Notes: generated from the letters alone by a model not told the origin. Shown: positions 1 through 58,730, counted from the stretch's first letter. The stretch is 64,000 bases of DNA from Phycisphaerae bacterium (GCA_029260035.1 JAJDEA010000222.1:15249-79248); one strand, 5' to 3'. Program-made: numbers and translations.

Positions 1-111
1 TCGCTTGCCCTCTGCAACTTGGGGGTAGAACCCTGGACCGAAGCCGAAGTACGCTCACTGGAAGGGCTTGCTCAGGCAATTGCCGAAAAAGCTGGCGCTG
101 AGCTTCATTAG
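1..111 (+). CDS. 3' end of an unidentified CDS entering from upstream of the window
   Basis: Frame 1 is open from position 1 to TAG at 109-111 (...EGLAQAIAEKAGAELH*). It is too short to assign a function. Confidence 0.25.
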   Translation, partial: SLALCNLGVEPWTEAEVRSLEGLAQAIAEKAGAELH

Positions 112-411
112 TCCGGGCTGCCCAGAACCGGGTAGATACTATGGCACGTTTAGCTAGGGCTGCGAGAAAACAATCGAGTGGTATCGGACCCACCATCCCC
201 TAGGAAGTATGAAACCTGCTTGATCCATAATAACGAGCTTTTGAGCCACCCACGCGATGAAATTCCACTTGGCCCGCCGTTTGCTAGCAAAAAATCGTGT
301 GCTCGATTGCGTTCGCGGCCCATTGAAATGATTCTCGACCCTCCCATGACTACGATTACATATCATCGTCCTGCAAGACGATGAAAAGCTCGATTCAAAG
401 GCTGATCGACC

Positions 412-2508
412 ATGATTTCCAGCAGCCAGACAAAAGCCAGCACTGCGCGAGGGCGAAAGAGCACAGCGCTACCGGTCTTGCCGCTGCAAAAAAAGCGGAA
501 CTACAAGCGATGGCGTGCGATCTCTTTGTCCCTCGTCTATCTTGTTTTTGCGATTCACATCATTCACTGGAAGATCACCGGCAAGACGTTGGCACCGCTC
601 GAACTCAACGAGGTCATGTACACATTGGAGCTTGGGATCATTACGGCAGGCTTCCTTTTCATGGGCTTGCTGGTCGCAGGCACGGCGATTTTCGGCAGGT
701 TCTTTTGTTCCTGGGCTTGTCACATTATGGTGTTGCAGGACTTCTGTGCATACCTCCTTCGCAAAATCGGGATTCACGCAAAGCCTATTCGGTCCAGAGT
801 CTTGCTCTGGGTTCCCCCATTGACGGCTCTGTATATGTTTGTTTGGCCTCAAGTGCTTAGAATGTGGCACAGTCAAGCCTTTCCGACTTTCCATCTCGCA
901 AGCGACGCCGACGGCTGGGCGTCTTTCGCGACAACAAATTTTTGGCGTAACCTGCCCGGCCCCTGGGTGATCGCGGCTACGTTTGCTATTTGCGGATTCG
1001 CTATCGTTTATCTGATGGGCTCTCGCACGTTCTGCACTTTTGTTTGTCCCTATGGAGCGGTGTTCGCGCTGGCGGATCGTTTCGCACCTGGGCGCATCAA
1101 AGTGAACGATGCGTGCCAACAATGCGCCCGCTGCACTGCGGTATGCACCAGCGGTGTTCGTGTGCATGAAGAAGTGAAACTTCACGGCATGGTTGTAAAC
1201 TCAGCCTGCATGAAGGACCTGGACTGCGTGAGCGTCTGTCCGCAAAACGCGCTACAATACGGACTGGCAAAACCCGCAGTCTTCAGCGCAAGCACTCGCG
1301 CTAGTGGCAGCCGTTTGCTATCCCATTTTTCGATCGCTGAAGAAATCCTGCTGTCAGCGGTGTTCCTGGTCGTGCTATTTTCTTTCCGAGGCCTTTACGG
1401 TCAAATCCCTTTTCTTCTGTCGCTCGCACTCGGAGCCATACTTGGCTACTTGGCAGTCTTAACGGCAAGGCTCGTGACACGCCCTGCCGTATCTTTGTCA
1501 AAACATCACCTAAAGCAAACCGGCCGATTGACCGGACTCGGTGTTGGGTTCGCCCTATTTTCGTGCCTGTTGACGATATTGGTAACTCACAGCGCATTTG
1601 TAAGGCTTCACGAGTATTCCGGACTGCGCAGCTGGCAGGTTTGGCGGCAAACGGAATCAGAAGATGAACGACATGGGCTCGCCGAAACGATTACCCAGCG
1701 CCTTGATGTTGCGAACCGCTGGAGTCTTATTCACAATCCACGCGTCACGCGTGCGCTCTTGCAATGCTCACTCGACCTAAAGCGATTTGACGACGCAGGT
1801 ATCTATGCTCACCAGTTTCTTCAGAGATTTCCAAGCGATTCGCAAGCTCAGTTGCATCTTGGCCAGGCACTCGTCGGCTTAGGGAAAAAGAAAGAGGCAG
1901 AGCAATATTTTCGAGCACTGATCGAAAATGGCCCCGGTTCGCCCTCAGGTCAAAGTGGAAACTTAGCGACAGCACACTACACGCTGGCTTCGCTACTTGT
2001 TGAGCGGGGTGAGTTCCGAAACTCAATAACATCTTTTGAAAAAGCCATCAAGTTGTCACCGGAACAAGGAACCTGGCTTGCGGCGCTTGGCAGCGCATAC
2101 GCCGAAATCGGTGAACTGGACAAAGCCGTGGCATGCCTGCAAACGGCGATCGAATTCGACGACACCCTCTCTCGCGCTCAATACAACCTCGGGACGATTC
2201 TTGCCATACAGGGCAAACTCGAACCCGCTATCGAAAGCTACAAAGATGCACTGCGCAATGAACCGAATGATCCGGAAGTGCTCAACAACCTTGGCTTGGC
2301 GTTATTGCGGGCAGGTGATCTCAATCAATCCCAATACTACCTTGAACGAGCCTTGGCGCTAGCCCCGGAAAACGCCGATACCCATTTCAACCTTGGTAGA
2401 CTGTTCACAATGCTGAGCGACTTGGCCCGAGCAAACCGCCATTTCACGGAAGCAGTTCGCATCAATCCTCGCTACGAACGGTTATTGATTTCGGGGCAAG
2501 GCCATTAG
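412..2508 (+). CDS. NapH/MauN-like 4Fe-4S polyferredoxin membrane protein fused to a C-terminal TPR array
   Basis: 698-aa ORF with an ATG start. The multi-TM N-terminal half carries Cys clusters (CSWAC, CTFVCPYG) and ferredoxin motifs CQQCARCTAVC (CxxCxxCxxxC) and CMKDLDCVSVCP. The C-terminal ~300 aa are TPR repeats (AHYTLASLLVERGEF, AQYNLGTILAIQGKL, LNNLGLALLRAGDL, HFNLGRLF). Confidence 0.85.
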   Translation: MISSSQTKASTARGRKSTALPVLPLQKKRNYKRWRAISLSLVYLVFAIHIIHWKITGKTLAPLELNEVMYTLELGIITAGFLFMGLLVAGTAIFGRFFCSWACHIMVLQDFCAYLLRKIGIHAKPIRSRVLLWVPPLTALYMFVWPQVLRMWHSQAFPTFHLASDADGWASFATTNFWRNLPGPWVIAATFAICGFAIVYLMGSRTFCTFVCPYGAVFALADRFAPGRIKVNDACQQCARCTAVCTSGVRVHEEVKLHGMVVNSACMKDLDCVSVCPQNALQYGLAKPAVFSASTRASGSRLLSHFSIAEEILLSAVFLVVLFSFRGLYGQIPFLLSLALGAILGYLAVLTARLVTRPAVSLSKHHLKQTGRLTGLGVGFALFSCLLTILVTHSAFVRLHEYSGLRSWQVWRQTESEDERHGLAETITQRLDVANRWSLIHNPRVTRALLQCSLDLKRFDDAGIYAHQFLQRFPSDSQAQLHLGQALVGLGKKKEAEQYFRALIENGPGSPSGQSGNLATAHYTLASLLVERGEFRNSITSFEKAIKLSPEQGTWLAALGSAYAEIGELDKAVACLQTAIEFDDTLSRAQYNLGTILAIQGKLEPAIESYKDALRNEPNDPEVLNNLGLALLRAGDLNQSQYYLERALALAPENADTHFNLGRLFTMLSDLARANRHFTEAVRINPRYERLLISGQGH

Positions 2509-2703
2509 CAGCACATACGTCAAACAGCATTTTCGACAGCGGGTGTGCCATTGTCTTGAGCAGTGCATGACATTGACGATGGTCGTCGCGGGCACTGTTC
2601 AACATGTAGGGGTACACAGCACGGCGTTACTCGTCACCTGGAAACCGAAACGTGACACTACGCGAGCACAGCAATCAATCGAAAGCACTATCTTGGCGAA
2701 AAC

Positions 2704-2793
2704 TCATATCGCCGGAATCTGCTGTATAAGAAAAATGGCACTGAACAGATAGCCTGCGAGAATTGCAATAATAACCACTCCCCATTCGCCCAT
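2704..2793 (-). CDS. candidate 29-aa hydrophobic micro-protein (MGEWGVVIIAILAGYLFSAIFLIQQIPAI)
   Basis: ATG at 2793 is preceded by AAGGAGG (complement of 2800-2806) with a 6-nt spacer, and TGA lies at 2706-2704. It predicts a single TM helix. It is below the ORF-track length cut-off. Confidence 0.3.
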   Translation of the reverse strand: MGEWGVVIIAILAGYLFSAIFLIQQIPAI

Positions 2794-2972
2794 ACCGAGC
2801 CTCCTTACCAGTTGACAACAAACCAAGGGTCTATTCTAAGTCCGATTCAGGAATTGAGTAGTTCCTTCAACGATGTTTGAGAATAAGTCGGGCGAGATTA
2901 TTCGAGAGGCTGCATCAGGAATGCGGTACCTACAAGATCGATCATGTTTGCCTGAAGGCCGCGACCCAAAGA

Positions 2973-3008
2973 GGTATCGAACCTGCAACCTTCGGCTTCG
3001 GAGGGCAA
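2973..3008 (-). repeat. degenerate copy of the 3' half of tRNA-Arg(CCG) (att-like remnant, copy 3)
   Basis: ggtatcgaacctgcaaccttcggcttcgga matches the T-arm-to-anticodon part of the tRNA at 14633-14706 with one inserted base. The acceptor part is decayed. It shares the extra extension gagggcaa with the copy at 5286-5328. Confidence 0.6.
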
Positions 3009-3148
3009 TCAATCCTCGACACTCAGCCAGGTAGTCATTTAGTTTCGGGCGCCCATTACGAACCCGAAAGTAAGCCCCTATTTACCCCGCCCCATGAACG
3101 CTTGACCACTATATCGGAGGAAACGAGTCTTACCGTGGTTCCTAAAGG

Positions 3149-5047
3149 CTATTTGCCCCCTGTCTGCTTGCTTCTTTTTTCAATTCGCCAGTGGCTGTTG
3201 GCGATTCCGCAATGTTTCCTCAACAAATAGAGATACTTGTCGTCCATCGAAATACCCAAGATGCCACCAGGACGCCAATAACGATGCTCTAACGGGACAA
3301 TTCCACCAGTCCCGAAATTTTGGACGAGCGACCCGGTGTTCTTCTCTCTTTTCTCCAATCTCCAGTCTGGATTACCAAGTCCTCGAAGACGTTGCTGTCC
3401 TGCAATAAAAAGATAATTCGCATCAGTCAGAACCTGCTCTGCGCTATCAGACCATGGGCCTGGATTGACAACGATTATTCCTAAATCACCAAAATTCTGC
3501 TCTAGTTCGCCGCTTGAAGAATCTCGTTTTTCAATGCGCCATTCCCCACTATCTAGACAATTGTCGTCTCCCACAATGTAAACGCTGTCCTTGTCGGCTG
3601 CCACAGCATATGGTTGTTCGTACCCTGATGTCGGGTTATGTTCAACCACGCCAGATCGCCCGAACTCCTCGAACAGAGATCCAGTCAAGGTGCTTCGTTT
3701 TTCGATATGCCATTCGAAATCTGTTTCAGATTCACTGCCAGGGCCAAGCGAATTCTTGCCAATGACGAACAGGCATTCTCCGAATACATCCATATCCCAT
3801 TCGAAACTCGGCTTTGGGTTGCGCACCACGCCATTCTCTCCGAATTCAGGAATCAAAGCTCCCGTATTCTTGTTCCTCTTTTCTATGCGCGTAGACCCGG
3901 ACGTGGTCCAGGTTCTTTCGCTTCCGAGCACAAAGATATGGCCGTCAACCACGTTCAAATCCCTGATACTACGAAGCCAAGTCTGCCCCGAGGCTTTGTC
4001 AGGTGATGTCACTACACCATGAACACCGAATTCCTGAACAAGGTTGCCCGATTTCTTGTCTCGTTTTTCGATTTGCCAAAAGTTTTCTCTTTTTTCGTAA
4101 TACGGGCCGACCCCCCTCAAGCAGGAGGCTATGTAAATATGATGATCGTCCAGCGCTATGACACGATTCCGCCTGGTCTCCCCGCCCGCGTCGGTAAGGA
4201 CGATACCTTTGCGGCCAAAAGTTTCTACCAAGGCCCCAGTGTCTTTGTGCCGCTTCTCCAAACACCAAGCCATATCTCCGTACTTCAAGTCTGGAGTTTC
4301 AAGACCTGAATCGATTATCAATCCTCCGCCAATGACAAAGATGTAGTCGCCATCTATGGCCATGTCTTTGGCCCGATAGTCCAAAATACCAAAGTTTGAG
4401 GCAATGCTGTAGAGCGGCGCTATCGCTTCGCTAGGCGGCCTCTCCCCCGGCTTTGGATGTCGTATCGCAATCGTCCTGATCAAAGGGTAGAGGACTTTCT
4501 TGTCCAATGTAGGAACACCTTCGCCAAGAGCTACAGTCGAATCGACCTTGAGATCTAAATTTGCCACAAACGTTGCATGGAATGAGTCGCTTCTATACTT
4601 GCCGGGAGACAGGGGGTTGTAGCAGGAGCAACGAACTGCAATGGGAATTGCGTCGTTGACCCATTTCGCTGCTGGCGCGAATGATAAGGACACTTCGGAA
4701 AAACCGATTCTCGGAGTGCTAGATCCCCTATCCATGGGGCTTCCTAGGTACCCGAATCCTGTTGATGTGTTCTGACCAGCCCAGACAACAACTTCGAGCG
4801 ACACGATCTTCTTCTGCTGTTCACCGGCTAGCGCAATGACCCTGTCCGCCAACTTCTCCGCCTTGAGACCCTTCAAGAGAATTGCGTCGGCACTATCGAG
4901 GTATATCAATTGGATTTCCAAGCTCGCGCTAGCTACGCCTCTTCCTCGTTCTGCTTCGATGAACTCTAACTTAACATCCTCTTTGGCTTGGACACAGAGT
5001 GAGTGAGCGAAGGCTATCGAAATAATTAGGCAGGTTACTTTCTGCAT
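3149..5047 (-). CDS. secreted beta-propeller-type repeat protein (delta-60-like repeats)
   Basis: Signal peptide MQKVTCLIISIAFAHSLCVQA. The ATG at 5047 lies one codon inside the GTG at 5050. The C-terminal two thirds contain seven ~50-aa repeats of the form W-x-[IL]-EKR-x-K-x-[TS]G-x-L-x-x-x-FG-x-x-G-[IV]-V (e.g. WRIEKRDSSSGELEQNFGDLGIIV, WRLEKREKNTGSLVQNFGTGGIV). Confidence 0.8.
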   Translation of the reverse strand: MQKVTCLIISIAFAHSLCVQAKEDVKLEFIEAERGRGVASASLEIQLIYLDSADAILLKGLKAEKLADRVIALAGEQQKKIVSLEVVVWAGQNTSTGFGYLGSPMDRGSSTPRIGFSEVSLSFAPAAKWVNDAIPIAVRCSCYNPLSPGKYRSDSFHATFVANLDLKVDSTVALGEGVPTLDKKVLYPLIRTIAIRHPKPGERPPSEAIAPLYSIASNFGILDYRAKDMAIDGDYIFVIGGGLIIDSGLETPDLKYGDMAWCLEKRHKDTGALVETFGRKGIVLTDAGGETRRNRVIALDDHHIYIASCLRGVGPYYEKRENFWQIEKRDKKSGNLVQEFGVHGVVTSPDKASGQTWLRSIRDLNVVDGHIFVLGSERTWTTSGSTRIEKRNKNTGALIPEFGENGVVRNPKPSFEWDMDVFGECLFVIGKNSLGPGSESETDFEWHIEKRSTLTGSLFEEFGRSGVVEHNPTSGYEQPYAVAADKDSVYIVGDDNCLDSGEWRIEKRDSSSGELEQNFGDLGIIVVNPGPWSDSAEQVLTDANYLFIAGQQRLRGLGNPDWRLEKREKNTGSLVQNFGTGGIVPLEHRYWRPGGILGISMDDKYLYLLRKHCGIANSHWRIEKRSKQTGGK

Positions 5048-5285
5048 CACGGGTCTATTCTTGTCGTTGCCTCGGTAGGAATCCGGCCGTCCGCTCGACG
5101 ATCCTCACAGATCGTTTATGCACAGTCCAATTATCCCATCAGGGCTGGTGATTACAAGCAATGGCCAGATAAAGACCATGCATAGGCATAGGAAAAACAC
5201 CTCAAGATCTTCGGTGCTTCCTTTCAGAACAAATGGCGAAACCGCAATGACATCGTCATGAGGCTTGATTTTGAGAAATGTTGTC

Positions 5286-5328
5286 AACGTCCCCGGCAGG
5301 GTTCGAACCTGAAACCTTCGGCTTCGGA
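5286..5328 (-). repeat. copy of the 3' half of tRNA-Arg(CCG) (att-like remnant, copy 2)
   Basis: aacgtccccggcagggttcgaacctgaaaccttcggcttcgga is identical to 14631-14673 except for one mismatch. It spans the 3' flank, acceptor 3' strand, T-arm, variable loop and anticodon 3' stem. Confidence 0.8.
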
Positions 5329-5562
5329 GGGCAACTCTTCAGCAAACCAAATCGTGGATTCAAAGCAACCGGCGGTGACTCGCTTGATAACCACCGAGAG
5401 GCGAGCAGCCGAAAGCAGTCACCTGATCCTTGCTAACGAGGTAGCCAGAAGTCCGCGTACCTTGCTCTATACGCTTGCGGTTTCGCCCATACCTCCCCAA
5501 TCGCGATAGTGCAGTCGTATTCCGCTGACTTACGCGAACCGATCTTTCGTTTGCCGATGAAC

Positions 5563-6168
5563 TTAGGACCCCGCAGGTGAGACTTGAACAGGCACTGGCG
5601 CTGTCCTGAGTGACTTGGCCTTACTATAAACCCGAAACGATATGATTAATGATGCAATGAGGGCAGCCATGAGCACGATGAACAAGATCAACCGAAGGTA
5701 GTTACGCTTGCGTACCTGCCGTTGAGACACAGCTGTCGGGTCCGGCAATTCCATCTGCGCTGTTTCGCTCGAATTGAATTCTCTTCCACACTCCGGGCAT
5801 TGAGGATTGACTTGTCCACGCAAATCGTATCCACATTTAATACACCAGAATCCACAGCGTTCAAGGACAATTGCGCGATCCAGCATGATGATGAGCGGAA
5901 ACCAAACGGCCATCGCCAGCGGGATCGGCACCCAATCGCCCGCCAAGCCGGACCGCGTCAGATAAAGAGAACCAAAGACCGTAGCTACCATCAAAGGAAC
6001 TAGCGCGAAGTAACGCCTGTTCTTGTCGTTACTCAACAGCGATCTGCAATGAGAGCAGGAGAACGCCTTTCTGCTGAGCATGAACCTGACACAGTTGATC
6101 CGGTGACGGCAGACTGGACATTCGCTAACCATCGAGATGCCTCTCTGGCTGAGCCGCAGTCGTGTCAT
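5563..6168 (-). CDS. zinc-ribbon membrane protein (paralog of the adjacent upstream gene)
   Basis: Two CxxC...CxxC ribbons (CPVCRHRI...CSHCRS; CIKCGYDLRGQVNPQCPECG) flank two TM helices, with a C-terminal TM helix. An alternative start at ATG 6132 has GAGAGG 7 nt upstream. The gene overlaps the upstream gene end (6125). Confidence 0.65.
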   Translation of the reverse strand: MTRLRLSQRGISMVSECPVCRHRINCVRFMLSRKAFSCSHCRSLLSNDKNRRYFALVPLMVATVFGSLYLTRSGLAGDWVPIPLAMAVWFPLIIMLDRAIVLERCGFWCIKCGYDLRGQVNPQCPECGREFNSSETAQMELPDPTAVSQRQVRKRNYLRLILFIVLMAALIASLIISFRVYSKAKSLRTAPVPVQVSPAGS

Positions 6169-6763
6169 CTTCGACTGTCTTGATCCGATCCTTGACCTGT
6201 CTCACAAACCGTTCCACATGAGCTGGCGTTGGAAAGACATTGGCTACGCCACCGATGCTCAAGTTCTTTTGCTTGTCTTTGAAGAATACTAAAGCGATCT
6301 GCGGCTTGCCATCGGCAATTTTCTTGAACGATGCTCCACCGATCTTGTTCCACGGATTCAGTTCTTCGTCAAATCCCGGCAGGCGTACGATCAGCCCATC
6401 GCTTGTCACAGCAACTTCGAAACCTCTCCGATAACGTGTCACGAGAAACCACACGCCAAACCCAACGAAGAAGAACCAGGCTATCGCCGCCACGGCTCCG
6501 ACTTTGTCCCATCCTGACGCTGATGCGAAGTTCAGAGCATTGGGAAGGTTCTTGAGGACCACCCAGCCTCCGCTGAAGATAGCAATCCACACAAAGAGCA
6601 ACTGTTTCGGATTGGTCACTCGATACAACTCGCACCGCTCATCGAACCGCAATCCACATTCAGGGCAAGCATGATTAGAGGGTAATCCTCGAAGCAAGTA
6701 GGCGCACCTCGCGCATTTCTTGAAGACGGGTTCGGCGAGAGCCTGTGTAATCTTGTCGTTCAT
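6125..6763 (-). CDS. zinc-ribbon membrane protein (CxxC-x-Y-L-L-R-G-x6-CPECG)
   Basis: The ribbon CARCAYLLRGLPSNHACPECG is followed by two TM helices and a soluble C-terminal domain. The longest ORF starts at TTG 6901; ATG options are 6835 and 6763 (MNDKITQ...). The start is uncertain. Confidence 0.6.
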   Translation of the reverse strand: MNDKITQALAEPVFKKCARCAYLLRGLPSNHACPECGLRFDERCELYRVTNPKQLLFVWIAIFSGGWVVLKNLPNALNFASASGWDKVGAVAAIAWFFFVGFGVWFLVTRYRRGFEVAVTSDGLIVRLPGFDEELNPWNKIGGASFKKIADGKPQIALVFFKDKQKNLSIGGVANVFPTPAHVERFVRQVKDRIKTVEDDTTAAQPERHLDG

Positions 6764-7119
6764 GCGACGATCCAAAAACCAAAGAAGGGCAGCGTGACAA
6801 ACCACAAAGAATCTGCAAGTTTCGTGCCATGACATTGACGTTATTCGTAAGAAATTGTCCGCGAAGGCGATCCGCCTGATGGTCGGTTTGGGCCACCTCA
6901 AATACGCCTTTGACGAACTCGGATGAGCGTTGGTAGATCGCTGGGGCGAGAATTCCTACCGGCGGTACTTCTGTGGCTGCACATTCATACAACACGAGTG
7001 CCCGATCCATCCAACCAGAATGCCGAATTGGCGGCACCGATCGAGGCCCGTTGGGATCACTACAGATAGAGACCTGCCAGGCGCCCGCCCGAGAATCAGT
7101 TCATGGTCGCGAGCGACAC

Positions 7120-8196
7120 TCACTGCGTGCATACCATGGTTCCGGTTGCGGCCGCAGGTGGCCGCGTCAGCCATGTCCGTGATGCGCTGGCCCTGATCAC
7201 AAGCCACCAAAAAAAGAAAATCGTCGTGAAGATGCGTAAGGCGACGGGAAACCAGGAAGACAATACGTCTCGACAATCAACAAGCACTCCATCGCCAGGG
7301 AACAGGGCGAAGCCGAATAGTGCTGGCAAGCGGTACCAGTAATAGCAACTGATAGCCGCAGCCGCGAACACACGGTTTAATCGCATGTGGTGTCGATCAG
7401 GAATGAGCCTTTCAATCAGTAGATACGCAGTTAGCGTTACCATCATTGCGCTCAAAGGCCATGCGTACGCTTCTATAAGATGCTTGTATCCTTCGTTTGC
7501 AACATAATCCTGCACATGAAACCAGCCCCAGATATACCCGACAAAACCACCAACCATCAACGTGCCGCCGAGCCGACGCAATCTGATTTGATCTTGCACA
7601 AGCGGAGAAACACTCGGCTGTGAGTCAGGGCATGGCGTTACGCATGCCACGCAACGATGACAATGGGCATTGGTAAAGGAAGCCACCGGTTCAGAGCCGT
7701 AAAGTTTCTCAACTGGGTAAATAGGGCACAGCCCTGAGCACCAGGCACTCTTCCATTCGAAACGAGTGCAGACGATGACGGCGAGCAATATTATTGTCGC
7801 GAGTGTGATGGCCGTAGCGGGCCCATTGAGATCAAGAATGACGTGGCGTAACGGTACGATCAGCAAGAGCAAAGCGACGCCCATCAGCTCAAGTCGTGCC
7901 TGCCAAGTTACGGAAAGTTCACGACGTGTGAACCAGCCCATATGCCGTGTGAGCAGTGCAGTAGACCCGAGCGGACACACATTACGCCAGAAGCCGGTCG
8001 CGATTGCGAACAACGCTGGGGCAACAGGAATCAAAACGTTCCAAAAGGCATGGATACCAATCGTCGGAGCGAAAACCAGGGCGAGGAATATACCCAGCCC
8101 GACTAGCCAGACAGTCAGTTGCAGGGTTCTCCAAATGACCCATGAACGACTCGTGAGTAGCGGGGTGCCTTCAAGGATCGACTCGGAGTTTCCCAT
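7120..8196 (-). CDS. NapH-like 4Fe-4S-binding polytopic membrane protein
   Basis: 358 aa with an ATG start and ~8 TM helices. Cys motifs are CPLGS, CSGLCPIYP and the ferredoxin signature CHRCVACVTPCP (CxxCxxCxxxCP). Confidence 0.8.
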   Translation of the reverse strand: MGNSESILEGTPLLTSRSWVIWRTLQLTVWLVGLGIFLALVFAPTIGIHAFWNVLIPVAPALFAIATGFWRNVCPLGSTALLTRHMGWFTRRELSVTWQARLELMGVALLLLIVPLRHVILDLNGPATAITLATIILLAVIVCTRFEWKSAWCSGLCPIYPVEKLYGSEPVASFTNAHCHRCVACVTPCPDSQPSVSPLVQDQIRLRRLGGTLMVGGFVGYIWGWFHVQDYVANEGYKHLIEAYAWPLSAMMVTLTAYLLIERLIPDRHHMRLNRVFAAAAISCYYWYRLPALFGFALFPGDGVLVDCRDVLSSWFPVALRIFTTIFFFWWLVIRASASRTWLTRPPAAATGTMVCTQ

Positions 8197-8390
8197 TTAG
8201 TCACGCATCCCGAAACCAGAATACTAGAAACGGGTCGAACGTCAAAGACTTCGGCGGTCGGGAGTGGTCAAGATGGTATTCATTGCACTGGAGCCGTAGA
8301 GCCGCGCGTCATGCCCCAGATAGACCACGTCTGCCGCGCCGCAAGCAAACTCACGCGTGACCAACATGGGAGCAGATCTGGGTTGCGTCG

Positions 8391-11099
8391 TTATTGCTGG
8401 TCATTGGGAAGACGCCGGTCGAGCAGCGTCTGGAAGTTCAACACGACGTGCAGTTTCGTGAAATCTCCCTCATCCTCGCCGCGCAGGAACATGTGTCCCT
8501 TTCCATCAGGGGACGGTTGCCAGTTTCGGTACCGCAGTCCTTCAACCGATGAAACGTTCAGTATCTTTTCAGCCGACGCGACGGACAACTCCGGCTCGAC
8601 CGAGATGGCAACCGACCAAATTTGGCCGTCGTTGTCGATTCCAAGTAGCGCTGCGCCGTCCGCCGACCAATGCCGTCTTACGAGAGGCTTGGAGGTTACG
8701 ATCCGTCGTCGCACACCAATCAGGCCTTTCTTGAAATCGATGCGTTGCAGGTAAGTTTGGGTTTCGCCCGACACGTCGGAACTAAAGGCGAGTATCTGTT
8801 CGTTGGGAGATAGGGCTACGACGCTTTCTCTTGCGTCCGAGTCCAAGATCGGTCGTAAGGTTCCATCATCCAGCGACAGCAGCAAGATGTCCCCTTTCTG
8901 CGTTCCAGTTTCTCTGCGGTTCAAGAGCAACGCGGAATGACCACCCACCCATGCGCCGATCCGCATACTCTCTGTTGCAGAGTCGACTTCGATGAGCGTC
9001 TCTGGCTCAGTCGACCCGTCAATTGGAGCGACTTGAATGGACGGCGGCTCCCCGACCATATACGCGATGCGCAACCCATCCGGCGACCAGACTGGGGCAA
9101 ACGCAGGTAGATCGGCACGGGTCAGCGGTTGTTCAATACCCGTGTCGAGATCGAGTACCCAGATTCGTGGCGTTCCGCCGTCAAATCGAAAAACAGCAGA
9201 GGCGATACGCTGCCCGTTCGGTGCGAAGGAAGGGAATTTGTAGTCTCGCCTCTTGGTGTTCACGACTGTCGGTGCCGTTTCGACATCCGAGACGAGGACG
9301 ATGTCCATGGTCTCGTCTTTAGGTCCGACGCTGCCGCCGTGGACAAGGGTTCCGTTAGAAGTGAATATGAAATTCCTGACGCCCGCGAGCAGCGAGGTGA
9401 CTTCGCCGGTCGTTTCGAGTTGCTCGGGGTCGAATCGCGATCCGAGTAGCGATCCGTCGCGAGCAAACAGCAAGTGATTCGACGGTGTCAGGCCCCCCAT
9501 CTGCACATCGGAGATGACGTCCTTCCGACGCTTCGGGTCGAAGGAACGTAGTTGCAGATGGCGGGCAATCGTACGCGTAGAGAAATCGATCGTGTTTGTC
9601 AGGATCATATCGGACAACGGAGTCGGTCGCGCGAAAAACATCCAAGCAGCTTCGGCGGGTTCGCTATCGATCTTGCTGATCGATCCATCATTGACATTGA
9701 GACGGGAGAGTGTCTTGTCATGGTGCAAGATCAGCAGGTGGTTCTCATTCAACCAGCAGCCCATCCACATGGCCTCACGTTCCAGGCGAGCGATCTCTAC
9801 TGGCGGGCTGCCGTCGCGCCGTACTCGGAACAGGATCTTATTTTTCTCATAAGCGATCCAGCGACCACTCGGGCTGAATACGGGTTGATGGCCGCCCTCT
9901 GTGCCGCGAATCGTATCCGCGTGCGGTTCGTTCAATTTGCGGAGTTGGAGCGGCAGATTGCCATCGCCCGTGTCTTCGCCGATCAACCCGCGGCAGTAGG
10001 CGATGGCAAGTCCGTCCGGCGAGACATCGTACTTGTCAAACTCGTACCCCTCTTGGGCCGAGATTGACAAGTGCATCGGCTCGGGCTGCGGCGCATCTTC
10101 TCGCCACGGTTGCCATATGCCGACAACCGCCACGAGAATGGCGACGACGGCGGTCGCCCATGGCAAGAGCGATCGAAAACCTGATGTCGCACCTTCTTGT
10201 GCCAGCGCAACCGAGGCGATACCGAGCGACGTGCTCGACGGATCAACCAAAGCGTTCTCAAGTTCTATTCTAGCGTCGGCGATGTCGTGTAGACGACGCT
10301 TGCGATCTTTTGTCAAACAGCGGCGAAGCAGGAGCTGGATCGTCGGTGGAGTGGTTGGCGGCAACAAAGACCACTCTGGGTCTTTGTGCATGATCGCTCC
10401 CATGGAGTCAGTAGCCGTTTCGCCACGGAAGAGCGTCTCGCCCGTCAGACACTCAAACAGAATGATCCCAAACGACCAGATATCGGTTCGCTTATCGAGT
10501 TTGCGACCCCGAGCCTGCTCCGGGCTCATGTAGGCAGCAGTACCAAGCACGACCCCAGGGCGCGTGTAGTTGGCTGTGATCGTTGGCGAGTTGGCATCCG
10601 CATGGCCGGATGGCTCGTCGGTCATCGCTTTCGCCAAACCAAAGTCTAGAACCTTAACCGTACCATCCTGTCGCACCATCACATTGGCTGGCTTCAGGTC
10701 TCGATGGATAACACCCTGTCCGTGAGCCGCCTCCAAGGCCTCAGCGATCTGCTTTCCAATGTCGAGCGCATCTTCGACCGCAACTGGACCGTTTTTCAGA
10801 TGGTCGCCGAGCGTTTCACCCTCGACATACTCCATCACAAGAAACCGAGTTCCATCTGAGTCGTCGAACCCATGAATCGCGGCGATATTGGGGTGATTGA
10901 GGGAAGCCAGGAGTTTTGCTTCTCGTTCGAAGCGTGCTACCCGCTCGTTGTCCCGCACCATCGATTCTGGAAGCACCTTAATCGCGACCTTCCGATCCAG
11001 TTTAGAATCGTTGGCAAGATAGACCTCGCCCATGCCTCCCGCCCCGAGGGGCGAGAGAATTTCGTAGGGACCGAGTTTCGTTCCTGCTTCCAAAGCCAT
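8391..11099 (-). CDS. Ser/Thr protein kinase with TM helix and C-terminal TolB/PD40-like beta-propeller
   Basis: Hanks kinase motifs are present: LGAGGMGEVYLA, VAIKVL, HRDLKPANVMV, DFGLAK, MSPEQ. A TM helix (AVVAILVAVVGIW) is followed by PD40-like repeats (FSPSGRWIAY, FAPNGQRIAS, WSPDGLRIAY, LSPNEQILAF, PSPDGKG). Confidence 0.9.
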   Translation of the reverse strand: MALEAGTKLGPYEILSPLGAGGMGEVYLANDSKLDRKVAIKVLPESMVRDNERVARFEREAKLLASLNHPNIAAIHGFDDSDGTRFLVMEYVEGETLGDHLKNGPVAVEDALDIGKQIAEALEAAHGQGVIHRDLKPANVMVRQDGTVKVLDFGLAKAMTDEPSGHADANSPTITANYTRPGVVLGTAAYMSPEQARGRKLDKRTDIWSFGIILFECLTGETLFRGETATDSMGAIMHKDPEWSLLPPTTPPTIQLLLRRCLTKDRKRRLHDIADARIELENALVDPSSTSLGIASVALAQEGATSGFRSLLPWATAVVAILVAVVGIWQPWREDAPQPEPMHLSISAQEGYEFDKYDVSPDGLAIAYCRGLIGEDTGDGNLPLQLRKLNEPHADTIRGTEGGHQPVFSPSGRWIAYEKNKILFRVRRDGSPPVEIARLEREAMWMGCWLNENHLLILHHDKTLSRLNVNDGSISKIDSEPAEAAWMFFARPTPLSDMILTNTIDFSTRTIARHLQLRSFDPKRRKDVISDVQMGGLTPSNHLLFARDGSLLGSRFDPEQLETTGEVTSLLAGVRNFIFTSNGTLVHGGSVGPKDETMDIVLVSDVETAPTVVNTKRRDYKFPSFAPNGQRIASAVFRFDGGTPRIWVLDLDTGIEQPLTRADLPAFAPVWSPDGLRIAYMVGEPPSIQVAPIDGSTEPETLIEVDSATESMRIGAWVGGHSALLLNRRETGTQKGDILLLSLDDGTLRPILDSDARESVVALSPNEQILAFSSDVSGETQTYLQRIDFKKGLIGVRRRIVTSKPLVRRHWSADGAALLGIDNDGQIWSVAISVEPELSVASAEKILNVSSVEGLRYRNWQPSPDGKGHMFLRGEDEGDFTKLHVVLNFQTLLDRRLPNDQQ

Positions 11100-11398
11100 G
11101 ATCTCTTCTCATTTTCAAGTTCTTTGGCGAACGATGCGATTATCGCGGCAATGAGACTGATAGCAAACAAAGGCGCAAAAAGGGCCAAGCGAGGACCGAC
11201 GACAAATCGGGGCACGCCGAGCGATGGCGTCAACCGGCGGCAACACCACAGGTCTTCTCTTGCAACAACTGGCTGCCAAGCCATAATCGCTGACAACAAT
11301 GACGGAGAGGCAACTTCAGTAAACGGTAAAGCAGGAACGGCGAAGAAGCTTCGTGGGTCGGTGGGAACATCTGATAGAACGCATATAGGAGAATCTGC

Positions 11399-12100
11399 AT
11401 GGCTGAGAGTGGTTCGAACGAAAGCGGCAGGAGCCATGCTGGCATCATTCGGATCGGAGGCTTCGCGATTCTATTTGGTCTCGCGATACACATCTACGTC
11501 AATTCGTTTGTGAAGCAGTTTCCGCCCGATAATCCATCACTGGTTGAGCTACAACAATACCTTTCGGACGAGGCAGAATCATGGGCGATTGTACATGGAT
11601 TGAGATATGTCGCGTTCGTCTGCATTGCATTGTTTGGCGCTGGTCTCTTTGCAAGAACAAGTCGCCCACACGCTACGCATCCGAACGGGTGGGGAGTCGT
11701 AGGCCTACTCGGCTGTGCCATGATGCTGGCAAACGCACTGATCACGAACGGAATCGAAATCTTAGCATTCGTTGATTTCAATCGTCTTGGCGAAGATCCA
11801 AAGCTTTTCTGGCTGTTGTTTCAAATCACGCGGGTACTGTTCACGGCTGAGATTGTGACGTGGACCATCTTGATCCTGGGCTTCAGCATAGCAGGATGGA
11901 GTTCATCAATGCTCCCGAAATGGCTTGCAGGCTTTGGACTGTTGAGTGCCACGTCGGGTGTGCTAACAGGCGTATTTATCGTATCGATCCTCAATGAGGG
12001 GTGGGCGGTAATACTGATAGAAGTGGCGAGTCTGACTGGTTTGGCTTGGTTCTTGTGTGCCGGAGTGTACATGATATTGAAAGGGGGCCGATCCAGTTAA
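11399..12100 (+). CDS. polytopic membrane protein of unknown function
   Basis: 233-aa ORF with an ATG start and about 6 predicted TM helices. I recognise no motif. Confidence 0.55.
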   Translation: MAESGSNESGRSHAGIIRIGGFAILFGLAIHIYVNSFVKQFPPDNPSLVELQQYLSDEAESWAIVHGLRYVAFVCIALFGAGLFARTSRPHATHPNGWGVVGLLGCAMMLANALITNGIEILAFVDFNRLGEDPKLFWLLFQITRVLFTAEIVTWTILILGFSIAGWSSSMLPKWLAGFGLLSATSGVLTGVFIVSILNEGWAVILIEVASLTGLAWFLCAGVYMILKGGRSS

Positions 12101-12230
12101 TTAGCTCTGCCGTATGAGCATCGCAAACATGGGGCCAGAGAGCAAGGATTCTGGAGCTAACCTGCACAGCACCGCTTCCGTTGCGGCGGAATCGCTCTTG
12201 ACGATTCCAGAAAGCGGTTTTTGAACGAAA

Positions 12231-12277
12231 GGAAGTAACGTCCCCGGCAGGGTTCGAACTTGCAATCTTCGGCTCGG
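12231..12277 (-). repeat. copy of the 3' half of tRNA-Arg(CCG) plus ~10 nt of 3' flank (att-like remnant, copy 1)
   Basis: ggaagtaacgtccccggcagggttcgaacttgcaatcttcggct matches 14621-14668 (ggaagtgagtaacgtccccggcagggttcgaacctgcaaccttcggct) with 2 substitutions and a 3-nt gap. It ends 2 nt from the stop of the hydrolase gene. Confidence 0.8.
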
Positions 12278-12278
12278 C

Positions 12279-13199
12279 CTATCTCAATCCCTCTTGAAGC
12301 CACTTCACAGCGTCTTCCACATAGTCAACCGGAAGACTATGTCCGCTTTCGTAGAATATGAGGCTCTTCATCGAACCGGATATCACATCATAGAGTCGCT
12401 GTGCTGACGCTGCATCGCAATACTTGTCGCTGCGCCCCATCAGCATGAGAAAAGGACGACCATGTAACTCCGACGCAAAGGTGGACGGTTTGATTCCGGG
12501 ACCAGCCCCAATTTGAACCAGGTGTGCCGCTGGCGTCACACAAGCGACCGATGACTTGACACGCGAATCCAACGCAGTCAAAGCAAAAGTCTGGATACCA
12601 CCGAGGCTGTATCCGACAACGCCGATACGACCGCTATCAATTTCGGGTCGAGTTTCGAGGTAGTCGATAGCCCTCTTCCACTCGACGACCGATTGAACCA
12701 CGAGGTCCCGGAACCGATTCACATGCTTCTGCTGCACCATGGTCCAGGCTGACTCGAACCTATTCTCAAATGTGCGTTCACCGTGATACGGAGCATCGGG
12801 CGAGAGCACGGCGAAGCCGTTTTTCAGTAGGGCGTTCGTCATGTTGCCACCACTGCCGTAGTTATCATCCTCCCACCAACCATCCTTATCTCCCGTGATT
12901 CCGTGGAGCAGCAGCACGCATGGATAGGGTGGCGATCCTGTCTTGGGAATGCCAAGGTAGGTGGTAACCCAACTGTCATTAACACGTAAGACTAACTTCT
13001 CGCGGACACAATCAGGAAGTTCCCGCTTCTCAACCACTTTCGCTTCCAGCGGAATGTCGCGGTCATACTCGTAGAACGACGCAAGAAGCTTGTACGCCTC
13101 CGTTCCGAGTGCTGGCTTCGCCCCTTCAGTCGTATCTTGAGCTGCCGCCCAGGTCTGCACGCCAAGAACTAACGCGGCTGCAAAGATCATTATTCGCAT
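12279..13199 (-). CDS. secreted alpha/beta hydrolase (dienelactone hydrolase / acetyl-esterase-like)
   Basis: Signal peptide MRIMIFAAALVLGVQTWAAAQ starts at ATG 13199. The 52-codon upstream extension of the longest ORF runs into a pseudogene fragment. Motifs are LLLHGITG, the nucleophile elbow GYSLGG, and ESGHSLP near the C-terminus. Confidence 0.8.
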   Translation of the reverse strand: MRIMIFAAALVLGVQTWAAAQDTTEGAKPALGTEAYKLLASFYEYDRDIPLEAKVVEKRELPDCVREKLVLRVNDSWVTTYLGIPKTGSPPYPCVLLLHGITGDKDGWWEDDNYGSGGNMTNALLKNGFAVLSPDAPYHGERTFENRFESAWTMVQQKHVNRFRDLVVQSVVEWKRAIDYLETRPEIDSGRIGVVGYSLGGIQTFALTALDSRVKSSVACVTPAAHLVQIGAGPGIKPSTFASELHGRPFLMLMGRSDKYCDAASAQRLYDVISGSMKSLIFYESGHSLPVDYVEDAVKWLQEGLR

Positions 13200-13256
13200 C
13201 GTAATTCTCCGGTCTGCCTTCTGCTGAGATGGGCCCGATCTGCCAAGAAGATATAA

Positions 13257-13510
13257 GGGCCAAGCGAAGGCCCAGTGCATTCTCGCCAATAACGAACGGG
13301 CTTTCCTCGTCCATATCCCATTCGATGTTCGGCTTTGGATTGCGCTCAACGCCATTTTCTCCGAATTCCGGGATCAATGCCACCGTGTTCTTGTACCTCC
13401 TTGCCTATGCGAGTTGACCCGGACGTGGTCCACGTTCTTTCGCTTTCGAGCACAAAGACATGGTCGTCGAGCCACGTTTGGATCCCTCATACTACGAAGG
13501 CAGGTTTGAC
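13257..13510 (-). pseudogene. frameshifted ~250-bp fragment paralogous to the repeat-protein gene (matches 3741-3990)
   Basis: Nucleotide alignment by eye of 13257-13510 against 3741-3990 shows long identical blocks (e.g. gacccggacgtggtcca, ttctctccgaattc). The translation ALIPEFGENGVERNPKPNIEWDMD matches ALIPEFGENGVVRNPKPSFEWDMD of the 3149-5047 protein. The reading frame is broken near 13385. Confidence 0.65.
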
Positions 13511-13531
13511 CCGACTATTATGCAGGTGAGG

Positions 13532-14569
13532 TCATCCTCTTTGATCTTTCGGATAGCTAGCGAATACTCGTCTAGCCAGCTCCTGCATATCTACAACGAC
13601 GTCGGTCTCGTCCACAATCTCCTCGCCCAGAAGTGTCTCCAGTAAATCCTCTAAGGTGACTATTCCCGACATGCCTCCGTACTCGTCTACAACCAGCGCA
13701 ATATGTTGGCTGTTTTTTACGAGGACGCCCAAAGCGCTCCCAACCGTCGCCAACTCCGGAAAGACTGGCAGGGGCTTGACCAACTCTTTGAGTCGCTTTT
13801 GGTCTTCGTTGGCGAAATGGACGGCGTAGATGGCGAAACGTGGGATATAACCGGTAACATTCTCAGGATCACCCGAATACACTGGAATCCGCGCGTAGCG
13901 AATAGGGGCGTGTTCCGCGAGTACCCCTCGAACAGTCAAGTCCTCCGAGAGCGAGAATACTACCGCGCGAGGAGTGAGTACGCGGCTCAAGGGGACGCTG
14001 GACAAGGCGATCAGGTTCGAAGCGATCTCGGATTCGCTTCTGCTGATCACACCGCTTGTCTGCCCAAGCCGTATAGTGGCCAACAGCTCCGCGCGACTGA
14101 GACGCTCTTCATGTCGCTCGTAGCCAATGACCCGTTTGACCCACTCCAGCAGGATGATTAGCGGAAAGCACAACAGGATCATCAAACGAATGACCATCGC
14201 CGACGGGAGCGCTAGCGACTTAGCGTGAACCGCACCTAACGTTTTGGGAATGATTTCGCTCACGACCAGAACCAGGAACGTCATGACGGCGCTGGCCATG
14301 CCGACCGCACCACTGCCAAACACGTTGGCAGCCTGAGCCCCGACGCCGACCGCTCCCACAGTGTGCGCTACTGTATTCAACGTGAGGATTGCTGCCAGCG
14401 GGCGGTCAATGCTGTCTTTCATCTCTCGCAGGAGCGCTGCCCCTCGTTTGCCGCGCTCTTGTAGCAACTCCACGTAGCTACGGGGTAGGCTCAGCAAACA
14501 CGCCTCCAGAAGGGAGCAGACAAACGAAACAGCAACGGCCAGCAAGCCGTAAATAACCAAGAGCGTCAT
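13532..14569 (-). CDS. CNNM/DUF21-CBS family membrane protein (hemolysin/CorC-like divalent-cation transport family)
   Basis: N-terminal DUF21 TM domain (MTLLVIYGLLAV..., EIIPKTLG) and a CBS pair (ALVVDEYGGMSGIVTLEDLLETLLGEEIVDE). The start is set at ATG 14569 because the longest ORF (to 14659) overlaps the tRNA. Confidence 0.85.
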   Translation of the reverse strand: MTLLVIYGLLAVAVSFVCSLLEACLLSLPRSYVELLQERGKRGAALLREMKDSIDRPLAAILTLNTVAHTVGAVGVGAQAANVFGSGAVGMASAVMTFLVLVVSEIIPKTLGAVHAKSLALPSAMVIRLMILLCFPLIILLEWVKRVIGYERHEERLSRAELLATIRLGQTSGVISRSESEIASNLIALSSVPLSRVLTPRAVVFSLSEDLTVRGVLAEHAPIRYARIPVYSGDPENVTGYIPRFAIYAVHFANEDQKRLKELVKPLPVFPELATVGSALGVLVKNSQHIALVVDEYGGMSGIVTLEDLLETLLGEEIVDETDVVVDMQELARRVFASYPKDQRG

Positions 14570-14632
14570 CGGTGGAATCCTCTGATCTCGGCGTGCCAGT
14601 GCGCCTCTTTGGATCGCGAGGGAAGTGAGTAA

Positions 14633-14706
14633 CGTCCCCGGCAGGGTTCGAACCTGCAACCTTCGGCTTCGGAAGCCGACGCGCTATCCAGTTGTGCCAC
14701 GGGGAC
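14633..14706 (-). tRNA. tRNA-Arg (anticodon CCG), 74 nt, no encoded CCA
   Basis: Manual cloverleaf: acceptor GTCCCCG/CGGGGAC (7 bp), anticodon stem TCGGC/GCCGA with loop TTCCGAA (CCG at positions 34-36), T stem GCAGG/CCTGC with loop TTCGAAC, a 5-nt variable loop and discriminator G. The D stem has one A-C mismatch. Confidence 0.9.
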
Positions 14707-15014: not shown

Positions 15015-16640
15015 ATGTCCTTGGAGGAAGTGCAACGGATGGTAAAGGAAAACAGAAACACGATACTCATTGTTGAAGATGAGGCGGATCTGAGGTTTGT
15101 CATATTGGCACACCTTCGTGCCGCTGGCTTTAACACGCTCGAGGCATCGAATGGCCAAGAAGGCATTGAAATGGCCATCGAACACCAGCCCGACCTCGTC
15201 ATCATGGATGTTGGGTTGCCGATTCTCGATGGCGTTGCAGCAACAAAGCTGCTCAAAGGAAATCCTGAGACGTCACGCATACCCGTACTCATGCTTACCG
15301 GCCGTTCCGGCGCGGAAGATGTCGTTCGGGGTCTTGAAGCAGGCGCGCAAGAGTACCTAGCCAAACCCTTCGACCTGACCGAGCTGCTGGCGCGTGTACA
15401 ATCCGTGCATAAGCTGGCATGTGCGCATCGCGACCTGGACCATCTCAATGCACAGCTGGAAGTTGAAGTCGATAGCAAGACACAACGAATACAGTGCCTG
15501 TACGAAGTCATGCGAGACCTGAACCAAGCCTCATCACACGATAGGGTGTTAGACTTGGTCATCGACTGCGCGGAGCGACTGACTGGCGCATCCCGGCTTT
15601 CCCTCCTACTCCGTGAACCGATGAGCGACAGGCTATCATGTTCACGTGCGATCGGGATTGATCCGGCTGTTGTCCAGAGTATCAGTATTTCCGACGGCGA
15701 AGGCATAGCCGGGGAGGTCCTCCGAAGAGGTGCAACGTTCTCGGCGAGCGTTTCGGGGACCGGCGCAATGGATGCACGCGGGTACGACAGCAAGAATTTC
15801 GTCAGCACGCCTCTCGTATCCTCTGCATCTGGAGGCGAAGACGGAATCATTGGCGTGCTCAACGTAACCGGTCGATCGGACGAAAAGCCGTACACCGAAG
15901 AGGAGATCGATTGCCTGCAATCGCTTGCAAGCGCCGCGGCCATTGCGCTGGAAAACTTCGATCGTCGAGATCAACTGGAGCAATCCGTTCGGGTGCTTTT
16001 GCAGACAGTCGGCCATTTAGCTGAATATCGTGACGAAGAAACGACACAACATCTCAGCAGAGTTTCTCGCATGGCAGGGCTTCTCGCGACGGAAGCACAG
16101 ACGGAAGGGCCTTACGCGTCAGTTATCACTAACGATTTCATAGATCAACTGGTTCAGGCGGCCCCCTTGCACGATATTGGCAAAGTGGGTGTGCCCGATG
16201 AGATTCTCACAAAACCAGGCAAACTTACTGACGCTGAATTTGAGATAATGAAGACACATACGGAGATTGGCAGGCGAGTTCTCTCCCAGGCTCTCGACCC
16301 AGCCCATCCCGCACCCATACTTGAGATGTGCGTCGATATCGCAAGCAGTCATCACGAGAGATTCAACGGCAAGGGTTATCCAAATGGCCTTTCGGGTGAT
16401 ATCATACCGCTCTCGGCGAGAATGATCGCGCTTGTGGACGCATATGATGCCATTACCAGCGAGCGTCGATATTCACCCGCCAAGCCTCACGACGTGGCGG
16501 TTGAAATCATACGCGATGAAGCCGGTGCCCATTTTGACCCCGCGCTTGTCGATGCATTTATGCGTTGCCATCAGCAATTCGCCTTCCTTCGGGAAAGACT
16601 GACCGGCGCCGAATCCACACAAATCGCGTTGGCAGTTTAG
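15015..16640 (+). CDS. response regulator with REC-GAF-HD-GYP architecture (putative c-di-GMP phosphodiesterase)
   Basis: REC domain (ILIVEDEADL, DLVIMDVGLP, KPF). The central GAF-like region is followed by HD-GYP motifs LHDIGKVGVP and SHHERFNGKGYPNGL. Confidence 0.9.
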   Translation: MSLEEVQRMVKENRNTILIVEDEADLRFVILAHLRAAGFNTLEASNGQEGIEMAIEHQPDLVIMDVGLPILDGVAATKLLKGNPETSRIPVLMLTGRSGAEDVVRGLEAGAQEYLAKPFDLTELLARVQSVHKLACAHRDLDHLNAQLEVEVDSKTQRIQCLYEVMRDLNQASSHDRVLDLVIDCAERLTGASRLSLLLREPMSDRLSCSRAIGIDPAVVQSISISDGEGIAGEVLRRGATFSASVSGTGAMDARGYDSKNFVSTPLVSSASGGEDGIIGVLNVTGRSDEKPYTEEEIDCLQSLASAAAIALENFDRRDQLEQSVRVLLQTVGHLAEYRDEETTQHLSRVSRMAGLLATEAQTEGPYASVITNDFIDQLVQAAPLHDIGKVGVPDEILTKPGKLTDAEFEIMKTHTEIGRRVLSQALDPAHPAPILEMCVDIASSHHERFNGKGYPNGLSGDIIPLSARMIALVDAYDAITSERRYSPAKPHDVAVEIIRDEAGAHFDPALVDAFMRCHQQFAFLRERLTGAESTQIALAV

Positions 16641-58698: not shown

Positions 58699-58730
58699 AA
58701 CGATTCCCTTTCCGTTTATTCAACTGGAAC

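Follow-up and report, generated by a model that had tools for sequence, protein, structure and literature searches.

Displaced fragments of tRNA genes (tDNA) mark the ends of genomic islands (PMC4383910). Among the 3919 islands of the Islander collection, 2083 belong to the class with an anticodon-centred attP attachment site, about half of the precisely mapped tDNA islands, and tandems of three or more are rare (4 of 3919, in a count that required an integrase for each member; PMC4383910). Partial tRNA genes are commonly attR sites, which makes them a recognised and frequent annotation issue (PMC9897764). Another kind of remnant is the cis-mobilisable element (CIME), a decayed element that has kept its attachment (att) sites and lost its integration genes; CIMEs accumulate in tandem (PMC5704250). 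Both CIMEs and tandem accretion have been described for elements related to ICESt1 and ICESt3 in Streptococcus thermophilus (Pavlovic 2004, Bellanger 2011, reviewed in PMC5704250). Here we analyse a stretch of 64,000 nucleotides from Phycisphaerae bacterium (GCA_029260035.1, JAJDEA010000222.1:15249-79248; hereafter the window), in which a tRNA-Arg(CCG) gene is followed on its 3' side by three partial copies of its own 3' half. This locus is probably a decayed tandem array of att scars, left at tRNA-Arg(CCG) by tyrosine-integrase elements whose integrases were deleted and whose contents were remodelled.

Results

The sole tRNA gene of the 64-kb window is an intact tRNA-Arg(CCG) at 14633-14706 on the minus strand, detected by ARAGORN and by Rfam (RF00005, 61.7 bits); it would be the regenerated target, on the attL side of the array. 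Rfam searches of the window at E-values up to 1 returned no further tRNA and left the three copies undetected. A repeat finder, by contrast, joined the tRNA gene and the copies into one direct-repeat family of four members (2960-3009, 5286-5335, 12237-12286 and 14631-14680), and two sub-patterns of the tRNA 3' half had three matches each at no more than 3 mismatches, versus 0.00 expected from 100 dinucleotide-preserving shuffles. We defined the extent of each copy by a blastn-short search of the whole 64 kb with the tRNA and 10 trailing nucleotides, which gave no significant match beyond these three. All of them share the minus strand with the tRNA and sit 3' of it, at lower coordinates. ARAGORN, the repeat finder and blastn-short thus bear out the initial annotation, which had described a tRNA-Arg(CCG) with three same-orientation copies of its 3' half on the 3' side. 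A genome-wide repeat unrelated to integration had been named there as a contrary outcome; within the 64-kb window the 45-nt sequence is not dispersed.

Copy 1 (12229-12274, minus strand) corresponds to tRNA positions 39-84, read as 12274-12229 (91% identity, E = 2e-12), and comprises the end of the anticodon loop, the T-arm, the 3' acceptor strand and 10 nt of trailer. It differs from the tRNA by 2-3 substitutions and one gap, the gap lying further 5' in the anticodon loop. Copy 2 (5286-5335, minus strand; tRNA positions 27-76 at 5335-5286, 92%, E = 3e-14) runs from a diverged 5' arm of the anticodon stem to the discriminator plus 2 nt, with 1 mismatch across a 43-nt core. Copy 3 (2972-3002, minus strand; tRNA positions 34-64 at 3002-2972, 94%, E = 3e-7) lacks the acceptor part; in the repeat search it spans 2960-3009, with 78% identity. 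Since its 26 perfect nucleotides are followed by 9 mismatches in 17, a pattern that is improbable under uniform decay (P ~4e-5), copy 3 is a truncated internal fragment and not an evenly decayed one. This corrects the earlier description of a partial copy with a decayed acceptor.

The left ends of the copies fall at the anticodon stem-loop, at tRNA positions 27 (copy 2), 34 (copy 3) and about 39 (copy 1). All three copies lie in intergenic gaps, clear of conserved protein domains, and exact matches between a copy and the tRNA region reach at most 26 nt. Window positions 1-4796 recur with 100% identity in an independently made Logan assembly from a public run (L106), so that the copy 3 junction is not confined to a single assembly.

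A gagggcaa extension, which the initial annotation had assigned to the two outer copies as non-tRNA sequence and possible element end, is in fact found in the copies at 5286 and 2960. Its tRNA-strand sequence, TTGCCCTC, aligns to TCGGCCTC, the 5' arm of the anticodon stem plus the first loop bases of tRNA-Arg(CCG) in relatives; what copies 2 and 3 share here is therefore, for the most part, tRNA sequence that has diverged. Both copies have two derived substitutions in this arm in common (TTGCCC versus TCGGCC), from which we conclude that they descend from one att sequence.

Outside the cores, similarity ends. The 90-nt flanks of the copies are mutually unrelated (P = 0.84 for copies 1 and 2, P = 0.49 for copies 2 and 3), and the cores are 91-94% identical to the tRNA, compared with 80% identity for the only other repeat of the region. 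Because homology stops at the tRNA-derived core and a segmental duplication would have brought flanking sequence along, the copies are better read as site-specific att cores. The 53 nt that follow copy 1 (12186-12238, minus strand) are collinear with the native trailer of tRNA-Arg(CCG) on metagenome contig L089 (54% GC, with a HIT-like lipoprotein gene downstream of its tRNA-Arg(CCG)). In a local alignment anchored at the tRNA end, 35 of the 53 positions are identical, and the score of 17 compares with 7.4 +/- 1.3 for 1000 dinucleotide shuffles (z = 7.6). This match would fit a copy 1 that is a displaced genuine 3' end together with its trailer; alternatively, the two sequences may be related P' arms. 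For the flank of copy 2 the similarity was weaker (P = 0.03) and was lost after correction for multiple testing.

In related genomes the two sides of the tRNA behave differently. On the 5' side, a gene for a response regulator with GAF and HD-GYP domains (15039-16640, plus strand; Pfam) is a conserved neighbour and belongs to a well-defined group of orthologues with 55-64% identity. Two other lineages, one a complete Phycisphaerales genome (L098) and the other represented by L099-L101, have tRNA-Arg(CCG) about 290-330 nt upstream of this gene, in the same divergent arrangement as in the window. The 3' side differs in every lineage compared (the window, L098 and L099-L101), and in the 4-10 kb covered at the L098 and L099-L101 loci there is a single tRNA-Arg(CCG) each and no partial copy of it. 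As the 5' adjacency is kept and the 3' side is variable, the fragments and the intervening genes are lineage-specific, and the tRNA with its 5' neighbour is old. A gene order shared with distant relatives, the other outcome that the initial annotation had regarded as fatal to its reading, is thus confined to the 5' neighbour and does not extend to the 3' side. It should be kept in mind that at ~60% identity ordinary rearrangement also erodes synteny, and that orthologues of two genes discussed below, encoding a Fer4-TPR protein and a CNNM transporter, occur in different contexts everywhere. A scan of reference-genome contigs with the response regulator gave only paralogues of at most 53% identity from many phyla, none of them with a tRNA.

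The distal flank of the array is formed by a Fer4_5 polyferredoxin-TPR gene (412-2508, plus strand; Pfam). Its orthologues reach 57% identity and none is found beside a tRNA; those on L084, L086 and L087 (at most 57% identity) have no tRNA nearby. That this gene was the ancestral neighbour of the tRNA could not be confirmed. A look-up of its protein, made to extend the sequence leftwards past the window edge, yielded no more than a 5.1-kb Logan contig.

In the species of L099, contigs from at least four samples end within the 3' part of tRNA-Arg(CCG) (the starts of L102-L105, compared with L099 9641-9714). The ends fall in the T-stem, the T-loop or the acceptor end, and 13 further similar places are listed. 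These ends are suggestive, and only that, of strain variation or of a repeat at the tRNA site.

Counterparts that do carry an integrase were found among viral sequences. The 25-nt sequence from the anticodon loop to the T-loop is present in three IMG/VR contigs. Two of them, UViG_3300036781_000517 and UViG_3300049889_000013, encode a tyrosine integrase (PF00589) whose catalytic domain lies about 215 nt from a fragment of tRNA-Arg(CCG). In both, the fragment starts at tRNA position 27/28 and reaches the acceptor end, and neither contig holds an intact tRNA. The two integrases are 46.5% identical to each other, and their nearest relative among GenBank phages is a mycobacteriophage integrase with 26% identity. 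Integrase-bearing elements with an att content and a left boundary like those of copies 2 and 3 therefore exist. The viral modules share with the window the same segment of tRNA-Arg(CCG) (25 nt identical, from about position 27/28 to the 3' end); they differ in their GC content of 64-67%, hence in their hosts, in the presence of the tyrosine integrase, and in having no sequence in common with the window beyond the core. The exact 40-nt 3' half of the tRNA had no match in viral contigs and matched only six intact tRNA genes in metagenomes. The junction of copies 2 and 3, TTGCCCTCCGAAGCCGAAGGTT, had no viral match, and a search for further integrases of the viral family brought up the same two contigs only.

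The positions of integrase and att are 733-2778 and 2400-2450 on L107, and 230-1768 and 400-447 on L109. The orientation of the att fragment relative to the integrase gene is opposite between the two, and in both a long open reading frame (ORF) reads through the att. On the third contig (L108, 9041-11408), the 25-nt core is part of the tRNA-Arg(CCG) gene of a 13-tRNA phage array and is unrelated to integration.

When the two att-linked viral integrases were compared with the window by tblastn, only the translated tRNA-like cores matched and no integrase remnant was found. The relics inside the array are of two kinds, mobile DNA and a decaying gene. The only mobile-element relic is the N-terminal remnant of an IS5-family transposase in segment B (6861-7046, plus strand; NF033578, E = 1.9e-13, model positions 47-108 of 419; DUF772, E = 7e-4), which has an in-frame stop at 6924-6926 and sits between the second of two zinc-ribbon genes and a polyferredoxin gene; no remnant of a recombination or conjugation module accompanies it. 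The statement in the initial annotation that integrase, excisionase and transposase are all lacking thus holds for the first two and is not quite right for the third. The decaying gene is a 266-nt pseudogene fragment (13269-13534, minus strand), previously noted as a gene fragment and now recognised as a piece of a paralogue of the repeat protein encoded in segment C. It has 80% nucleotide identity to positions 3742-4011 and contains stops and frameshifts.

In the orientation of the tRNA, the array reads tRNA, segment A, copy 1, segment B, copy 2, segment C, copy 3 and the Fer4-TPR gene. The intervals A, B and C measure about 2.36, 6.9 and 2.3 kb, within the Islander range of 2-200 kb. The gene next to the tRNA, in segment A, encodes a CNNM/CBS transporter (13532-14569, minus strand; Pfam CNNM and CBS). 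Its homologues occur throughout the clade at 56-86% identity and in other contexts. None of the three on L081-L083 (86%, 75% and 74%) lies beside a tRNA, and CNNM is the only gene that these contigs have in common with the window, except for L082. There (10001-14294), the CNNM gene (75%) adjoins homologues of window positions 39738-42130, an aldolase/short-chain-dehydrogenase fusion gene and a YCII gene, which in the window lie 25 kb from CNNM on the other side of the tRNA. The CNNM start is 64 nt past the tRNA 3' end on the same strand (14569-14633), and 38 of these 64 nt are homologous to the leader of the L081 CNNM gene. Judged from these comparisons, CNNM looks like a relocated core gene and not like cargo, contrary to the accessory-type cargo of the initial annotation; the codon usage and GC content of the segments are near native as well. 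The 266-nt pseudogene fragment starts exactly at the CNNM stop codon, an abutment which suggests that a rearrangement inserted CNNM at the cost of the repeat-protein paralogue. CNNM probably arrived through a secondary rearrangement independent of att, in which most of this paralogue was also lost.

Given its position, CNNM may be co-transcribed with tRNA-Arg(CCG). A promoter-like site (TTGACA-16-TAGACT) lies upstream of the tRNA at 14837-14810; promoter and terminator scans of the region as a whole gave chance levels.

Segment A further contains a gene for a secreted alpha/beta-hydrolase, an esterase of the dienelactone hydrolase type (12279-13199, minus strand; Pfam DLH/Abhydrolase, NCBIfam esterase). 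Segment B begins, after copy 1, with a membrane protein that had no family match in Pfam and NCBIfam scans (11399-12100, plus strand), followed by a Ser/Thr kinase with a TolB-like beta-propeller (8391-11099, minus strand; Pkinase and PD40, otherwise generic kinase matches). The PADLOC matches of this kinase (PD-T4-6, mad6) were considered as signs of a defence island and rejected as generic kinase-domain similarity. A NapH-like membrane polyferredoxin (7120-8196, minus strand; weak NapH/MauN match) comes next, and beyond the IS5 remnant two adjoining membrane proteins (5563-6763, minus strand) both carry a CxxC...CPECG zinc-ribbon motif. The ORFs of this pair (5563-6168 and 6125-6763, minus strand) overlap by about 44 nt, and their common part is limited to C.(K/R)C.Y.LRG....CPECG..F (BLASTP E = 3e-5 over 26 amino acids).

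The only gene of segment C encodes the secreted repeat protein (3149-5050, minus strand; 633 amino acids) with repeats of about 55-60 residues and the motif W.IEKR...G.L..FG..G.V. No Pfam, NCBIfam, PHROG or PADLOC family matched it above threshold; a beta-propeller built from repeats of an undescribed type is its probable fold. Elsewhere in the window, 56164-58698 (minus strand) encodes an 844-residue secreted protein with a long Gly/Ser-rich low-complexity tract and tandem repeats of about 90 residues. On the other strand, a 266-residue proline-rich ORF (57962-58762) almost certainly just shadows that gene.

Discussion

How could such a locus have formed? We propose that, two or three times, a tyrosine integrase recombined a circular integrative element, an island or a temperate virus, into the tRNA gene. 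In its attP the element would have had its own version of the tRNA sequence between the anticodon stem and the 3' end, and the crossover would have fallen in or near the anticodon loop. After each event the tRNA gene would have been whole again, with the earlier 3' half displaced beyond the insert. Deletion of the integrase and excision modules and remodelling of the inserts would have followed: an IS5-type element arrived and decayed, the repeat-protein paralogue shrank to its 266-nt fragment, a chromosomal CNNM gene was moved in directly behind the tRNA, and the outermost fragment was truncated. The end product would be a row of short, integrase-less, att-bounded segments comparable to CIMEs. 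The agency of an integrase, the number and order of the events and the later deletions are what we infer here from the arrangement of the repeats. The initial annotation had likewise seen att scars of tyrosine-integrase elements, and the geometry, the boundary at the anticodon and the integrase-linked viral counterparts speak for that part of it. Its picture of three serial integrations delimiting three cargo segments is neater than the analysis supports.

Several observations weigh against an origin by serial integration. The search of all window ORFs and intergenic peptides found no Phage_integrase domain, and no excisionase or relaxase either. PHROGs and PADLOC scans of the segments revealed no phage or conjugation genes; the PHROGs matches were generic ones to the kinase, the esterase and CNNM, with no phage structural, replication or lysis genes, so the array does not qualify as a prophage or prophage remnant. 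The segments are very short and hold ordinary genes of chromosomal type. Profiling of GC content and codon usage, a check suggested by the initial annotation, gave no clear foreign signal: the segment genes fall within or near the spread of the 31 other window genes, except that the GC content at third codon positions of the kinase and CNNM genes is about 3 standard deviations higher. CNNM has the behaviour of a core gene passed on vertically, so that segment A, at least, is no simple element with cargo. Copies further from the tRNA do not have more substitutions (2-3 plus a gap in copy 1, 1 in copy 2, none in the retained part of copy 3), and the order expected if the newest insert is nearest to the tRNA is thus not seen. 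Copy 3 is internal to the tRNA and would fail the end-fragment filter of Islander. Finally, no empty site or presence/absence polymorphism was seen, as the nearest of the relatives found are only ~60% identical in the flanking proteins.

The main rival explanation is a mixed origin, in which only one integration was genuine and an att-bearing piece of DNA was, along with the repeat-protein gene, duplicated or rearranged without site specificity to give the other copies, for example by an insertion sequence or by illegitimate recombination. It draws on real features of the locus. The derived anticodon-stem changes (TTGCCC versus TCGGCC) that unite copies 2 and 3 imply one ancestor sequence, the repeat-protein gene of segment C and its 80% identical fragment in segment A show that DNA was duplicated between segments, an IS5 remnant is present, and CNNM was clearly moved by some process other than att recombination. 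We nevertheless consider a mixed origin unlikely. The flanks that a segmental duplication would bring along are dissimilar outside the core, the cores (91-94%) are far better conserved than the duplicated coding DNA (80%), and the arm common to copies 2 and 3 is explained equally well by two related elements with the same attP. Much less probable still is an assembly artefact, in which alternative islands of coexisting strains were chained through the common core. The window does come from a 112-kb metagenome-assembled contig, copy 3 is the only junction confirmed by a second assembly, and contigs of one related species often break inside tRNA-Arg(CCG). However, an exact match of at most 26 nt is far below the length of usual reads and final k-mers, and single reads should span each copy with its flanks. 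In addition, the copies differ mutually, and L106 independently yields 4.8 kb of sequence across copy 3.

Two further explanations do without integration, and we give each of them hardly any credence. A former tandem of complete tRNA-Arg genes that later lost their 5' halves, an origin already disfavoured, would account for copies in tRNA orientation and for the likeness of the copy 1 trailer to a native tRNA trailer. Yet all three copies are without the 5' half and break near the same place, the anticodon stem-loop, which independent decay would not produce; upstream of none of them is there a trace of a D-arm or of a 5' acceptor strand, and relatives have a single tRNA-Arg(CCG) at the locus. 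Alternatively, the copies could be functional tRNA-like RNA elements, kept by selection as processing or termination signals for neighbouring genes. Their position would suit this role, as each lies in the intergenic gap just downstream of a same-strand gene (the esterase gene for copy 1, a zinc-ribbon gene for copy 2 and the repeat-protein gene for copy 3). But with the 5' acceptor partner missing no minihelix can form, T-stem pairing is disrupted by substitutions in copies 1 and 2, and of the acceptor nothing is left in copy 3. Nor was there an Rfam match at E-values up to 1, terminator-like sites occur at chance level, and the locus in relatives holds no such fragments.

A bolder variant of the att reading would be that the integrase-less segments are live cassettes, mobilised in trans by the product of an integrase gene at another genomic locus, and that the 3' end of tRNA-Arg(CCG) is an integron-like capture platform for chromosomal genes. 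We regard this as very unlikely. If it were true, the platform would reshuffle ordinary genes in a planctomycete lineage, and CNNM, 64 nt from the tRNA, would be an example of a captured gene.

Read as a decayed array of att scars, the locus is an ordinary, already known kind of scar in a little-studied phylum and no departure from known biology. Its significance is modest and it implies no new mechanism. It would document the 3' side of tRNA-Arg(CCG) as a site-specific insertion point in an uncultured lineage of the Planctomycetota/Phycisphaerae type, a group for which few integrative elements have been described, and it points to a viral tyrosine-integrase family that uses tRNA-Arg(CCG) from the anticodon stem to the 3' end as its att. 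For annotation, the three tRNA-like fragments should not be called genes, and the 11.7-kb stretch has a lineage-specific gene order.

Where within a tRNA gene an att lies has been sorted into sublocation classes, reportedly by Williams in 2002. The locus agrees with the anticodon-centred class (class A), as its identity blocks begin at the anticodon stem-loop, and so do the viral att fragments. Among described systems, the tDNA islands of Islander (Hudson, Lau & Williams 2015, PMC4383910) are close in layout: an intact tRNA gene is accompanied by displaced cognate fragments of its 3' part that lie downstream in the same orientation, start at the anticodon stem-loop and, as in tandem arrays, occur several in a row. 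Of the copies, 1 and 2 reach the 3' end and beyond, and copy 3, with positions 34-64, would be rejected because Islander requires an end fragment. Unlike Islander islands, which need a tyrosine-integrase gene inside or overlapping the interval (one per member of a tandem array), the intervals here have none, lie at the 2-kb lower limit of size, end in an internal outermost fragment and hold gene content that is not island-like.

A single element resembles the locus in its repeats. PYG1 of Pyrococcus yayanosii is flanked by 44-bp repeats at tRNA-Gln (PMC9897764), so that in both cases a direct repeat of about 44-50 bp from the 3' portion of a tRNA borders an insert; PYG1, however, is one 21-kb element with an integrase, as opposed to three short intervals without one. 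The description of CIMEs suits the locus: every interval is bounded on either side by att-like cores, genes for an integrase, a relaxase or transfer are absent, and the intervals stand in tandem at the 3' end of the target gene. The CIMEs of S. thermophilus differ in having ICE (integrative and conjugative element) relatives and a cis mobilisation that was shown experimentally. The present locus has no known parent element, its att copies are partly decayed or truncated and may no longer be recombinogenic, and its host is of the Planctomycetota type.

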